From assembly GCA_043811535.1 (NCBI GenBank), contig JBDRNC010000020.1:8483-72482 (forward strand): DNA of 64,000 nucleotides, given 5' to 3'. Position numbers and translations under genes: made by a program. This document shows positions 5,553 through 54,716 of the stretch, piece after piece. Under the pieces are notes generated by a model, which worked only from the letters and a program-made list of their open reading frames with translations, did not search any database and was not told where the DNA came from. The stretch's first letter is position 1, and each line of letters starts with the position of its first letter. Source of the stretch: Elusimicrobiota bacterium. Lineage in GTDB: Bacteria > Elusimicrobiota > Endomicrobiia > Endomicrobiales > JBDRNC01.

Positions 5553-6053
5553 ATGCGCTGCCCCTTCTGCAAGAGTTTTAACGACCAAGTCATAGATTCC
5601 AGGCCGATGGACGAATCTTCTGTCATCCGCAGGCGAAGGGAATGCCTGGAATGCAATAAAAGATTCACAACCTACGAACGCCTTGAGGAGATGCCTCTCA
5701 TGGTGGTCAAATCCGACCAGCGCAGGGAGCTTTTTAACCGCCAGAAAATCCGCGAAGGAATAGCCAAAGCATGCGAAAAACGCCCGATCTCGCAGGACAC
5801 AATTGAAAAGATAGCCAGCGAAGTGGAATACGAGTTGCAGGACTACGTGATGGAGGCCCCGAGCCGCACTATAGGCGGAAAAGTCCTTGAGAAGCTCAAG
5901 AAGATAGACCACGTGGCCTATATAAGGTTCGCTTCGGTCTATCACCAGTTCGAGGACATAGATAAGTTCATGAAAGAACTTAAAAAGATCAAAAAAGAAT
6001 ACAAAAATATGGAAGAATCAAAAGCGGAAGAAATCAAAAAAAGCAGCGAGTAA
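5553..6053 (+). CDS. nrdR: transcriptional repressor NrdR (zinc ribbon + ATP-cone)
   Basis: MRCPFC...CLECNKRFTTYE zinc ribbon followed by an ATP-cone. It sits directly upstream of an RNR gene. Confidence 0.95.
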   Translation: MRCPFCKSFNDQVIDSRPMDESSVIRRRRECLECNKRFTTYERLEEMPLMVVKSDQRRELFNRQKIREGIAKACEKRPISQDTIEKIASEVEYELQDYVMEAPSRTIGGKVLEKLKKIDHVAYIRFASVYHQFEDIDKFMKELKKIKKEYKNMEESKAEEIKKSSE

Positions 6054-15731: not shown

Positions 15732-18170
15732 ATGAGACCTGTAAACATAAAAAACGTTGAGATTATCGGGTTGCCGGATGAAAAACTCATTGCTTTGAGT
15801 AAGGATAACGTGCTGTCCCTGTCCCTGCTTGAGATGAAAATCATTCAGAAATATTTCAAGGGACAGGGCCGCAACCCCACGGACGCCGAGCTTGAGACGA
15901 TAGCCCAGACGTGGAGCGAACACTGCAAGCATAAAACACTGACAGGTGTCATAAAATATACAGAGACTGAAGACGGAAGACTGAAGACGGAAGAATACCA
16001 AAACCTTCTCAAAGAGACGATATTCAAGGCGACGAAGGAACTTAAGAAAAAATGGTGCATATCGGTTTTTGAAGACAATGCAGGCGTCATTGAATTCAAT
16101 AAGGATTACGGGATAGCATTCAAGGTAGAAACTCATAACCATCCCTCCGCGCTGGAGCCGTACGGAGGGGCCGCTACCGGCATAGGCGGCGTAATAAGGG
16201 ATATTCTAGGAGTCGGGCTCGGTGCCAAACCCGTTGCCAACACGGATGTTTTCTGTTTCGGGCCGCCGGAACTTGAGTGGGATGACCTGCCTGACGGGAT
16301 GCTGCATCCGAAACGCATCGCGAAGGGCGTGGTATCCGGAGTGCGCGATTACGGCAACAGGATGGGCATACCCACAGTAAACGGCGCCGTGTATTTTGAC
16401 GAAGGATATATTTCAAATCCCCTTGTGTATTGCGGCACGCTCGGGATGATACCGACGGGCATGGCGTTTAAAAAAGTTAAACCCGGCGACCTTGTGCTTG
16501 TCGCAGGCGGACGGACCGGCAGGGATGGAATTCACGGCGCGACATTTTCGTCCACAAAACTTCACAAACATACAGATGCAACCGCGGTGCAGATAGGCAA
16601 CCCGATAGTTGAAAAGAAAGTGCTGGACACGCTGCTTAAGGCGCGCGATATGGGACTTTATCGCGCGGTTACCGATTGCGGCGCAGGAGGTCTTTCAAGC
16701 GCTGTCGGCGAACTTGGGGCTAAGTGCGGCGTGACGGTAAATCTTGAAAAAGTGCCGCTGAAGTACGCGGGACTCGCGCCTTGGGAGATATGGCTCTCGG
16801 AAGCGCAGGAGCGGATGGTTTTCGCGGTTCCAAAGGAACACCGGGACGCCATTATGCAGGTTTTTGAATCAGAAGGAGTGGAAGCGACTTTTATCGGCGA
16901 GTTCACAAAAGACAAGAAATTGATTGTTCTGTATAAGGAAGACCTTGTGGTCGTGCTGGATATGCAATTCCTGCATGATGGCGTGCCCAGGCCCACGCAT
17001 GCGGCTTCATGGGAAGTGAAGAGCCGGACGGCGGCTAAGTTGCCGAAGTCAAAGGATCTCGGTGTTGATCTCAAGCACTTGCTTTCAAGTCTTAATATTT
17101 GCTCGCGCGAATGGATAATAAGGCAGTATGACCATGAAGTCCAGGGGCAGACGGTAATAAAACCGCTTCAGGGCAGGCAGTCGGGACCCGGCGACGCGGC
17201 AGTGATATGGCCGTATACATTCACAAAAGACGGAAGTAGGAAGAAGGAAGCGGGAAGAAAAGGCAACGACAAAGAAACATATAAAGGCATTGTGCTTTCA
17301 AACGGGTTGAATCCGGAGTACGGCAAAATAGACCCTTACTGGATGGCGGCGTCGGCTATCGATGAAGCCCTGCGCAACGCGGTCGCCGTAGGCGCGGATA
17401 TAGAAAGAACAGCGCTTCTGGATAATTTCTGCTGGGGAAGCCCGGATAAACCGGAAGTTTTAGGCGGGCTTGTGCGCGCTTCAACTGCATGCTATGAGTT
17501 CTCAAAAGCGTTTGAGACTCCGTTTATATCGGGCAAGGACAGCCTGCATAACGAGTACATAGTTGACGATAAGGCGTATTCCATTCCTCCGGCCCTGCTT
17601 ATTTCCGCCGTGGGTATCATAACGGATATAAGAAAAGCCGTCAGGATGGATTTTAAGCACGACGGCAGCCTGATCTACGTCATCGGCGCCACGAAGAATG
17701 AACTCGGCGGGTCGCAGTACCTGAAATTGAAAAAAACCGATGGAGGAGAACTGCCTAAAGTCGACGCGAAAATATCAAGAAAGGCCATGATATCGCTCGG
17801 GAAAGCCATGCAAAAAGGGCTCGTTGCGGCATGCCATGATTGTTCCGAAGGCGGGCTGGGCGTGGCGATAGCAGAGATGTGTTTTGCCGGCGGCAAAGGC
17901 GCGACGGTAGAGCTCTCCGCGGTCACGGCGGATACCGCGATGAGCGACGCGGAAATTCTTTTCTCGGAATCTAACAGCAGGTTTATAGTTGAGGTTGGAG
18001 CCAGAAACAGGAGCGAATTTGAAAAACTAATGAAAGGCGTCGCTTTTGCAAAGATCGGGGTGGTTGAAGAGAAACCGGCGCTGATAATTAACGGGCAAGA
18101 AGGGAAAACAATAATTTCGGAAAAGACGGATGATTTGCAGGAAGCGTGGAGAAAGACTTTAAATTGGTAA
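15732..18170 (+). CDS. purL: FGAM synthase II (small-type PurL)
   Basis: 812 aa with WSEHCKHK, ETHNHPSA and DCGAGGL motifs. Confidence 0.95.
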   Translation: MRPVNIKNVEIIGLPDEKLIALSKDNVLSLSLLEMKIIQKYFKGQGRNPTDAELETIAQTWSEHCKHKTLTGVIKYTETEDGRLKTEEYQNLLKETIFKATKELKKKWCISVFEDNAGVIEFNKDYGIAFKVETHNHPSALEPYGGAATGIGGVIRDILGVGLGAKPVANTDVFCFGPPELEWDDLPDGMLHPKRIAKGVVSGVRDYGNRMGIPTVNGAVYFDEGYISNPLVYCGTLGMIPTGMAFKKVKPGDLVLVAGGRTGRDGIHGATFSSTKLHKHTDATAVQIGNPIVEKKVLDTLLKARDMGLYRAVTDCGAGGLSSAVGELGAKCGVTVNLEKVPLKYAGLAPWEIWLSEAQERMVFAVPKEHRDAIMQVFESEGVEATFIGEFTKDKKLIVLYKEDLVVVLDMQFLHDGVPRPTHAASWEVKSRTAAKLPKSKDLGVDLKHLLSSLNICSREWIIRQYDHEVQGQTVIKPLQGRQSGPGDAAVIWPYTFTKDGSRKKEAGRKGNDKETYKGIVLSNGLNPEYGKIDPYWMAASAIDEALRNAVAVGADIERTALLDNFCWGSPDKPEVLGGLVRASTACYEFSKAFETPFISGKDSLHNEYIVDDKAYSIPPALLISAVGIITDIRKAVRMDFKHDGSLIYVIGATKNELGGSQYLKLKKTDGGELPKVDAKISRKAMISLGKAMQKGLVAACHDCSEGGLGVAIAEMCFAGGKGATVELSAVTADTAMSDAEILFSESNSRFIVEVGARNRSEFEKLMKGVAFAKIGVVEEKPALIINGQEGKTIISEKTDDLQEAWRKTLNW

Positions 18171-31719: not shown

Positions 31720-31817
31720 CGGTTCCACTCGTATTCCTCCCCTGGCGGAGTCAGGGGATTCAATAACGCGGGATTGAATTATCCGCAAAAATCTACTAAA
31801 ATATCGATTATCCGGAC

Positions 31818-31914
31818 GGGCAGTTAGCTCAGCGGAAGAGCGGGCCGACGCGTCGGCCTGGCCGCAGCGGCCACTCCGGGATCGTTGAAGGAATCTTTCG
31901 TATCGTTTCATTAC
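31818..31914 (+). pseudogene. tRNA-Val-derived pseudo-tRNA unit 1 (97-bp phase)
   Basis: The first 25 nt and the TGGCCGCAG segment are identical to the real tRNA-Val. The anticodon arm is replaced by GGCCGA-CGCG-TCGGCC, and there is no T-arm or 3' acceptor strand. Confidence 0.75.
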
Positions 31915-32011
31915 GGGCAGTTAGCTCAGCGGAAGAGCGGGCCGACATATCGGCCTGGCCGCAGCGGCCACTCCGGGAATCGCTAAAAGATTTATTGTAT
32001 TGTTACATTTT
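31915..32011 (+). pseudogene. tRNA-Val-derived pseudo-tRNA unit 2
   Basis: Same layout as unit 1, with hairpin GGCCGA-CATA-TCGGCC (stem conserved, loop changed). Confidence 0.75.
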
Positions 32012-32083
32012 GGGCAGTTAGCTCAGCGGAAGAGCGCTCGCCTTACACGCGAGTGGCCGCAGGTTCAAATCCTGCACTGCCCA
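32012..32083 (+). tRNA. tRNA-Val (anticodon UAC)
   Basis: Hand-folded cloverleaf: acceptor GGGCAGT/ACTGCCC, D-arm GCTC/GAGC, anticodon arm CTCGC-CTTACAC-GCGAG, T-arm GCAGG-TTCAAAT-CCTGC. No CCA is encoded. Confidence 0.9.
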
Positions 32084-32194
32084 TGATAGATAAAAGTTCC
32101 AGCGCAGCCGACAAGTAATTGGGGAAACGAAAGTTATTTGAGCGGATTTTGCGCCCCGTCTTTCGGGGCACTGCCTATATCAGCGGGAAAGCAA

Positions 32195-51135: not shown

Positions 51136-51307
51136 ACCGCGACAATTGAAAGTGTAAAGACTATTGCAGTTCACTTATCAGTAAACTGTCAACCGTCAAC
51201 TGTCAACTGTGAACCGTCGAAAAATCTTTGAAATTTGATAGTTGAAAGTAGACCGTCCGCCACTGAGACTTTGGCGGACTCCAGATTTTTACGCAGTAAA
51301 AATCTTT

Positions 51308-54381: not shown

Positions 54382-54453
54382 GCCGAGGTAGCTCAGCGGT
54401 AGAGCAATGGTTTCGTAAACCATAGGCCGTGGGTTCAAATCCCATCCTCGGCT
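54382..54453 (+). tRNA. tRNA-Thr (anticodon CGU)
   Basis: Hand-folded: acceptor GCCGAGG/CCTCGGC, anticodon arm ATGGT-TTCGTAA-ACCAT, T-arm GTGGG-TTCAAAT-CCCAT. Confidence 0.9.
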
Positions 54454-54540
54454 GTTAACTGCAGTTGGAAGTGGGAAGTTGGAAGACGGAAGTAAAAACA
54501 GGGACAACAAGGCATAAACTGGGATTTGAAGCCGACCTGA
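54437..54540 (+). repeat. 104-bp perfect direct repeat, copy 1 (includes the last 17 nt of tRNA-Thr)
   Basis: AAATCCCATCCTCGGCTGTTAACTGCAGTTGGAAGTGGGAAGTTGGAAGACGGAAG...GAAGCCGACCTGA is identical to 54613-54716. Confidence 0.9.
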
Positions 54541-54612: not shown

Positions 54613-54716
54613 AAATCCCATCCTCGGCTGTTAACTGCAGTTGGAAGTGGGAAGTTGGAAGACGGAAGTAAAAACAGGGACAACAAGGCATAAACTGGGA
54701 TTTGAAGCCGACCTGA
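54613..54716 (+). repeat. 104-bp perfect direct repeat, copy 2
   Basis: 176-bp period. The 72-bp GC-rich filler between the copies contains the hairpin GTCCC-GCCA-GGGAC. Confidence 0.9.

Follow-up and report, generated by a model that had tools for sequence, protein, structure and literature searches.

Repeats that carry a piece of an adjacent tRNA gene have been described in Escherichia coli, where tRNA-linked repeats (TLRs) occur as tandem units in tRNA and rRNA operons, mostly without a known function, and close with the final 18-19 bp of the stable-RNA gene upstream of them (PMC8144298). The 178-bp TLRs located after tyrT are an example (Egan and Landy 1978, as reviewed in PMC8144298). 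Non-decoding RNAs derived from tRNAs can also be regulatory; these include tRNA-Other of Bacillus cereus, a free-standing, cloverleaf-like gene (PMC3399842), and E. coli 3'ETS-leuZ, a 3' trailer with defined base-pairing partners (as cited in PMC8144298). Literature searches for partial tRNA repeats located 5' of a gene found no nearer case than these TLRs and tRNA-Other.

The array considered here consists of two units directly upstream of a tRNA-Val(UAC) gene, in a 64-kb stretch of DNA (the window, meaning the whole stretch that was analysed) from a metagenome-assembled genome (MAG) of an uncultured member of the Elusimicrobiota. It resembles the TLRs in being made of short tandem non-tRNA units, each of which exactly repeats one end of the neighboring tRNA gene. 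TLRs are co-transcribed in a stable-RNA operon, and co-transcription of the window units is predicted from a promoter motif. However, the 3'-end identity that defines TLRs is absent: while TLRs carry the 3' end of a gene and lie downstream of it, the window units share the first 25 nt and 9 nt of the variable region (TGGCCGCAG) with the gene immediately downstream, and lie upstream of that gene in its probable leader. In addition, the remainder of each window unit is rebuilt into two perfect GC palindromes, TLRs have no sequence relationship to the array, and the array is found in one Elusimicrobiota MAG only. By analogy, TLRs appear to be the closest known counterpart, and the array could be regarded as their 5'-side mirror image. 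Both tRNA-Other and 3'ETS-leuZ provide a model for a functional interpretation of the units (see below), although the units have no cloverleaf and the likeness is only a potential one.

An earlier note on this DNA had described units phased at exactly 97 bp that share nt 1-25 and TGGCCGCAG with tRNA-Val, in which the anticodon arm is replaced by GGCCGA-NNNN-TCGGCC (with CGCG or CATA at the centre) and the T arm by a second hairpin, and from which the 3' acceptor strand is missing. The array is real and this description was accurate in each of these points (Table 1). The 25-mer GGGCAGTTAGCTCAGCGGAAGAGCG has three exact occurrences in the window, at 31818, 31915 and 32012, giving an exact 97-bp period (Tandem Repeats Finder: period 97, 2.3 copies, 88% matches). 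Shuffled sequences are expected to contain 0 copies of the 25-mer, and no further sites were found in the 64-kb window with up to 3 mismatches allowed. Each unit begins with tRNA nt 1-25 and continues with the first palindrome (H1), then with TGGCCGCAG, which in the tRNA forms the variable region and the start of the T stem, and finally with CGGCCACTCCGGGA and a 33-nt AT-rich spacer. Alignment confirmed that nt 1-25 and TGGCCGCAG are common to both units and the genuine tRNA-Val. The sequence that takes the place of the T arm, TGGCCGCAGCGGCCACTCCGGGA, is found at 31859 and 31956 only. GC content is 75% in the core, 36% in spacer 1 and 21% in spacer 2, and a blastn-short search of the window and the relatives' loci detected no similarity to spacer 1 elsewhere.

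Table 1. Positions of the array, its promoter and the intact tRNA gene in the window.
Feature	Position	Strand	Description
Sigma-70-like promoter, putative	31774..31802	+	TTGAAT-17-TAAAAT (consensus scan); ends 15 nt before unit 1
Unit 1 core	31818..31881	+	tRNA-Val nt 1-25 (5' acceptor strand, D arm), H1, H2 including TGGCCGCAG, then CTCCGGGA
H1 of unit 1	31843-31858		16-nt perfect palindrome, centre CGCG
H2 of unit 1	31859-31873		15-nt palindrome containing TGGCCGCAG
Spacer 1	31882..31914	+	AT-rich
Unit 2 core	31915..31978	+	Identical to unit 1 except for three bases at the H1 centre (CGCG to CATA)
H1 of unit 2	31940-31955		Centre CATA
H2 of unit 2	31956-31970		
Spacer 2	31979..32011	+	
tRNA-Val(UAC)	32012..32083	+	Third and only intact copy; functional-looking (ARAGORN and Rfam)

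The intact gene was called as Val-tac at 32011-32084 by ARAGORN and scored 74.2 bits against the Rfam tRNA model at 32012-32083, and its cloverleaf is the minimum free energy (MFE) structure (z = -3.3). Units 1 and 2 gave no such signal. At E<=10, Rfam cmscan reported 32012-32083 alone, and ARAGORN, relaxed from 100% down to 60% of its thresholds, called no plus-strand tRNA in either unit. The H1 loop is 4 nt long, and the units have neither a T loop nor a 3' acceptor strand. As Rfam and ARAGORN both fail to call them, the units were rejected as tRNA genes and as cloverleaf pseudogenes. Similarity to the tRNA past TGGCCGCAG is no better than that of shuffled sequences; therefore, the 3' part of the unit was also rejected as a decayed T arm, and the T arm and 3' acceptor strand are effectively absent. 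The folding energy of the units is likewise no better than that of shuffles (MFE z = -0.8 and -1.5). A coding sequence across the units was rejected as well, since, apart from short ORFs, the region contains just one of 86 aa on the minus strand, which has no Pfam match.

The genes upstream of the array encode GAR synthetase, AIR carboxylase, aspartate carbamoyltransferase, dihydroorotase, dihydroorotate dehydrogenase and OMP decarboxylase, together with purM, purN and purB, while those downstream encode a PocR/AraC regulator, two GH2-like hydrolases, a GH72-like protein and an OmpA-domain protein. A Pfam scan of every plus-strand ORF of at least 150 aa between 20.5 and 44.5 kb, in which three ORFs had no Pfam match, identified no integrase, transposase or phage genes within ~11 kb on either side. 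The collections contain no close relative: the next PurB is 83% identical, the next PocR regulator, from a different relative, is 55% identical, and the best match in a PurB locus search of species-representative genomes was 64% identical. Among these relatives, L002 (PurB 78%) has purB followed by 58 nt, one tRNA-Val(UAC) and then GH2, while in L001 (PurB 83%) purB abuts the PocR gene and there is no tRNA. L003 and L004 (PurB 74%) have one tRNA-Val ~5 kb downstream. L087 (PocR 55%) has a promoter, a structured leader and one tRNA-Val(UAC), followed by PocR and GH2-GH2-GH72, and L088 (PocR 53%) has the same arrangement. The tRNA-Val of L087 differs from that of the window by one base. In a relative with a PurB of 82% identity, the gap between purB and GH2 is 236 nt. 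The comparison of related loci that the earlier note had proposed thus yielded one tRNA-Val or none, and never three intact tandem genes. Because the relatives carry one or none at the locus, a single tRNA-Val is ancestral, with the units derived and private to this lineage. The array is accordingly young on the scale of this clade, and it is known from one genome. As a separate observation, L003, L004 and L005, the relatives with a PurB of 74% identity, contain a gene with 23S_rRNA_IVP/bAvd domains between purN and purB (5587-5946) that the window lacks; bAvd proteins are of the type that serves diversity-generating retroelements as accessory protein.

Wider searches did not extend the distribution of the array. 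The H1-H2 pattern GGCCGANNNNTCGGCCTGGCCGCAGCGGCC, with 26 specified bases, had 0 matches in 596 Gb of species-representative genomes and 0 matches in the JGI metagenome collection. A tandem D-arm pattern had a sole match in the metagenomes (L006), which proved to be an unrelated intact tRNA-Val(GAC) pair 101 bp apart, and blastn-short of the core, spacers and upstream region against the window and the relatives' loci returned only noise. A dispersed palindromic repeat of the REP/MITE type was rejected, given that there are only two copies in the 64-kb window and 0 in the genome and metagenome collections.

H1 of unit 1, formed by GGCCGACG and CGTCGGCC, is a perfect palindrome of 8+8 nt with no centre between its halves, and H2 of both units, TGGCCGC-A-GCGGCCA, is a perfect palindrome of 7+1+7 nt. 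In both H1 and H2, complementarity reaches into the supposed loops, at positions that an RNA hairpin could not pair, and the palindromy exceeds what an RNA hairpin requires. By inspection, 3 of the 7 H2 pairs are already present in the tRNA sequence TGGCCGCAGGTTCAA, and four of the changes between unit and tRNA in this stretch are exactly those that make the H2 palindrome perfect. The 3' half of H1 is an exact inverted copy of its 5' half, and GCC and ACGCG are common to H1 and the anticodon arm. Template switching during replication is expected to leave perfect inverted repeats where imperfect ones existed, a process termed 'quasi-palindrome correction'. A template-switch origin in a redundant gene copy is proposed for the units, whose palindromes, being perfect at the DNA level, fit what such mutation would be predicted to produce.

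Several features tie the units to the tRNA beside them. In a covariance-model alignment the units match tRNA-Val along nt 1-64, and a covariance model of the core scored 98-99 bits for the two units and 27-37 bits for genuine tRNA-Val genes in the window and 12 relatives' loci, where it had no other matches besides the units and true tRNA-Val genes. The units also carry the variable region TGGCCGCAG of the type found in the window and L087, together with G at nt 25, whereas L088, L002 and L003 differ from them at the variable region, at nt 25, or at both. Based on the alignment and these lineage-type bases, the units derive from their own tRNA-Val, and not from a foreign source. Alignment, shuffle tests and blastn-short over the window and the relatives' loci did not trace a source for the spacers or H1.

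Of the explanations offered in the earlier note, 'decayed gene copies' thus stands with respect to derivation from tRNA-Val and falls with respect to simple decay, as the remodelling towards GC palindromes was directed. Like tRNA pseudogenes and tandem duplicates, the units derive from a neighboring tRNA gene in tandem and have lost the cloverleaf (the pair in L006 illustrates, for contrast, a tandem duplicate in which both genes are intact). Ordinary tRNA pseudogenes, however, decay roughly evenly and towards AT, whereas in the window the cores are identical outside the H1 centre, GC-enriched and palindromic, and only the spacers drift. In the T-arm region, 6 of the changes from tRNA to unit are AT-to-GC versus 3 GC-to-AT, and the nt 26-64 segment is 82% GC in the unit compared to 62% in the tRNA. 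This GC-ward change runs opposite to the GC-to-AT drift between the spacers, and it counts against reading the array as a relic.

With regard to expression, the motif TTGAAw-17-TAnnnT precedes tRNA-Val in four lineages, namely the window, L087 (TTGAAA-17-TAAGAT), L088 (TTGAAA-17-TAAAAT) and L002 (TTGAAA-17-TAGACT), and local similarity between the promoter regions of the window and L087 is modest (p ~0.024). In L002, 16 nt separate the -10 hexamer from the tRNA start, versus 15 nt between the hexamer and unit 1 in the window; unit 1 therefore seems to occupy the ancestral promoter-proximal position. No comparable promoter was found in the spacers between units by consensus scan and alignment, and a terminator scan detected no terminator-like site between the units and tRNA-Val. 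Because the promoter motif lies so close upstream of unit 1, the units are probably co-transcribed with tRNA-Val as a ~200-nt 5' leader of the pre-tRNA. An intrinsic terminator or attenuator within the units was rejected, since the scan was silent at H1 and H2, and H2 is followed by CTCCGGGA with no U tract.

Downstream of the gene, a 35-nt element (32141-32175) lies between tRNA-Val and the PocR/AraC gene and is conserved at L088 4923-4957, with a score reached by 0 of 5000 shuffles. In the window and L088 alike, 57 nt separate the element from the tRNA end, so the intact tRNA appears to have kept its ancestral 3' context. The element is missing from L087. It consists of a GC hairpin, GCGCCCCG-loop-CGGGGC, whose loop has changed, and its end, GCACTGCC, is identical to the tRNA-Val 3' end; the counterpart of this end in L088, GCACTGCCCACCA, corresponds to the acceptor 3' strand, discriminator base and CCA. 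The element thus resembles a partial copy of the 3' terminus of the tRNA.

The leaders of the relatives form a different kind of structure. In L087 (1728-1796) and L088 (4722-4793), a leader of 70-95 nt that forms a long hairpin lies between the same promoter and tRNA-Val. These two leaders are alike (score reached by 0 of 2000 shuffles), with at least one compensatory pair change recognized by eye. Alignment of the leaders to the tRNA or the window units gave scores at shuffle level, on which grounds the leaders were rejected as tRNA-derived or unit-related, and they match no Rfam family. They may represent an undescribed pre-tRNA leader structure of this Elusimicrobiota clade.

Divergence between units 1 and 2 is unevenly distributed. 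There are 0 differences in the 60 core nt outside the H1 centre and 3 differences, all transitions, in the 4-nt H1 centre, while spacers 1 and 2 differ in 12 of 34 aligned columns (~35%; 10 mismatches and 2 gap columns). Six of the 10 spacer mismatches are GC in unit 1 and AT in unit 2. The contrast between nt 1-64 and the spacer gives a Fisher p of 1.4e-4, and a partition chosen post hoc, after seeing the data, gives 8.5e-8; both values come from two copies in one genome. As a plain neutral relic would lack such uneven divergence, gene conversion must be invoked if the array is a relic. The homogeneity of the core points to either gene conversion, for which the tRNA would be the donor of nt 1-25, or selection, and the two would explain it equally well. 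CRISPR arrays have identical 23-47 nt repeats, unrelated spacers and usually many units. A CRISPR array was rejected, as the window contains 64-nt cores in two full units only, with spacers that are 65% identical to each other.

If selection maintains the cores, these may be functional tRNA-derived RNA modules that are co-transcribed with tRNA-Val and act as cis competitors or as released RNAs. This reading, which the earlier note had offered as regulatory or decoy RNAs, is the main alternative to a relic and is considered less likely. In the cis form, the units would compete for the single 3' acceptor strand of the tRNA, tuning pre-tRNA-Val folding and RNase P processing; in the released form, stable RNAs resembling a tRNA 5' half would bind or decoy a partner that recognizes the D arm. 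Perfect conservation of the core between units in which the H1 centre and spacers diverge is a classical signature of constraint, and the units lie downstream of a likely promoter. The relatives, too, have a structured leader with a conserved hairpin, and such a leader may matter in this clade. In silico, pairing of the unit 1 5' strand with the tRNA 3' acceptor strand is nearly iso-energetic with the native helix (-117.1 versus -116.6 kcal/mol with forced helices in a modelled 280-nt precursor), and the probability of the unit 1-acceptor pairing (0.10 to 1.0) varies with the 5' end chosen for the precursor, as a thermodynamic prediction only. The model suggests that acceptor-strand competition is a cost or possibly a regulatory lever. 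As a cost rather than an obvious benefit, it would speak against a function, as do the presence of the array in one genome and its absence from the relatives and all collections searched, complementarity into loop centres that RNA folding does not need, and folding energies no better than those of shuffles. Moreover, the units belong to no Rfam family and show no covariation, two near-identical copies being all there are.

A narrower version of this proposal, in which the units are selected cis-acting 'decoy 5' half' leader modules or released small RNAs resembling tRNA 5' halves, is rather improbable. Such a device would present the 5' acceptor strand of tRNA-Val together with its D arm, both fixed to a pair of GC hairpins, and would set the amount of mature tRNA-Val(UAC), either through acceptor-strand competition or through titration of a D-arm factor.

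It is also conceivable that the palindromes act as DNA, as binding sites phased at 97 bp for a dimeric protein, such as one that represses the tRNA-Val/PocR region. Both H1 and H2 are perfectly palindromic, and conserved half-sites around a variable H1 centre are what two half-sites and a spacer would look like. Each unit contains four GGCC, which makes the array the densest GGCC cluster in the window, although GGCC is unremarkable in the genome (observed/expected 0.92), a ratio that also led to the rejection of GGCC restriction-site avoidance. We consider such binding sites very unlikely, since other intergenic and promoter regions of the window contain no similar palindrome, and allowing up to 2 mismatches gives no more matches than chance. 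In addition, the sites are positioned past the promoter and within tRNA-derived sequence, and the palindromes are missing from relatives that share the PocR-GH2 cluster. Protein binding would also leave the conservation of the 25-nt tRNA part unexplained.

Other repeats occur in the window. A perfect 104-nt direct repeat is located at 54437-54540 and 54613-54716, with a spacing of 176 bp. Its first copy begins within the T loop of tRNA-Thr(CGT) (54382-54453) and comprises the last 17 nt of the tRNA and 87 nt downstream, and each copy holds an inverted copy of T-arm sequence (TGGGATTTGAAGCC versus GGGTTCAAATCCCA). This arrangement is reminiscent of E. coli tyrT-type TLRs, although it may instead have been duplicated recently or stem from the assembly. 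The terminator of tRNA-Asp(GTC) is probably a perfect 14-nt inverted repeat, CGTTCACTTTTTGC/GCAAAAAGTGAACG, whose start overlaps the final bases of the gene; short tandem repeats of the GT(A/C)AAC(T/C)GTCAAC type lie ~100 nt upstream of the same gene (51181-51215). Finally, a perfect 14-nt tandem repeat, AGACTGAAGACGGA, is present in 2.2 copies at 15964-15994.

Since tRNA genes are common integration sites, the units might instead be scars of site-specific integration and excision (att-site duplications) at tRNA-Val, an idea to which the tRNA-Thr duplication and the partial copy of the tRNA-Val 3' end downstream of the gene lend some support. As in att duplications produced by tyrosine integrases, a partial tRNA copy adjoins an intact gene. 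However, att duplications copy the 3' part of the gene, and an integrase-bearing element stands between copy and gene, whereas the array has none of these features: its repeated part is the 5' part and lies upstream, a 97-bp spacing is too short for an element, and integrase, transposase and phage genes are absent within ~11 kb. Furthermore, the 25-mer is absent from IMG/VR viral contigs, and a shorter palindrome pattern had 19 matches in these contigs, a chance level, all in high-GC phages (62-72% GC) and with no extension of the similarity. Integration scars are thus highly improbable, and the suggestion in the earlier note that the units are relics of an unusual recombination system found no support in the gene content, the spacing or the viral contigs.

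The source of the sequence is a contig from a MAG, and the collections contain no second assembly of the same organism; the array could therefore be an assembly artefact, for example strain variants chained in tandem, and the 100%-identical tandem repeat next to tRNA-Thr could hint at trouble in assembling repeats. An artefact is nevertheless unlikely. The spacers and H1 centre differ between units, so each junction is unique and would be spanned by reads or k-mers longer than ~65 nt, and chaining of strains would need joins through merely 25-34 identical bases. Moreover, the units keep an exact register, and both flanks agree with the ancestral contexts at the promoter and on the 3' side.

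It is most likely that the array is a relic of duplication rather than a new system. In detail, we see an even chance that it represents a lineage-specific expansion of tRNA-Val(UAC) within its own transcription unit, of which a remnant was remodelled into palindromes and is carried in the leader. According to this history, the front part of tRNA-Val, to at least nt 51, would have been duplicated in tandem by unequal recombination or slippage, and the promoter-proximal copy, being redundant, would have lost its activity and been reshaped by mutations generating perfect inverted repeats. Template switching would have turned the anticodon-arm region into H1 and the variable-loop/T-arm region into H2; in the latter case, conversion of the tRNA quasi-palindrome TGGCCGCAGGTTCAA into TGGCCGCAGCGGCCA may have been a single template-switch event. 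The remodelled copy would then have been duplicated again in the 97-bp register, for example by an unequal crossover through the common 25-nt 5' segment. At present, the units would be transcribed as a structured part of the leader; RNase P would remove this leader at the real 5' end of the tRNA, and its degradation would follow without it having served any function. The cores would have stayed nearly identical through concerted evolution, with gene conversion acting from unit to unit and, over nt 1-25, also involving the tRNA.

Since the array is confined to one uncultured Elusimicrobiota genome, its general importance would be limited under any of these readings, and the finding carries modest weight. 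The array is a real but lineage-private curiosity; by analogy with the TLRs it would belong to a kind that is already known, while its 5'-side palindromic form appears to be new. If the core is functional, the leader of this pre-tRNA would carry a cis element derived from a tRNA, which is rare in bacteria, and the array would be a functional counterpart of TLRs on the 5' side. If the array is a relic, a redundant tRNA copy would have been destroyed by palindrome-creating (template-switch) mutations instead of point decay, and the remodelled product then amplified by unequal crossover, in which case tRNA-linked repeats would be able to form 5' of a gene as well as 3' of it.
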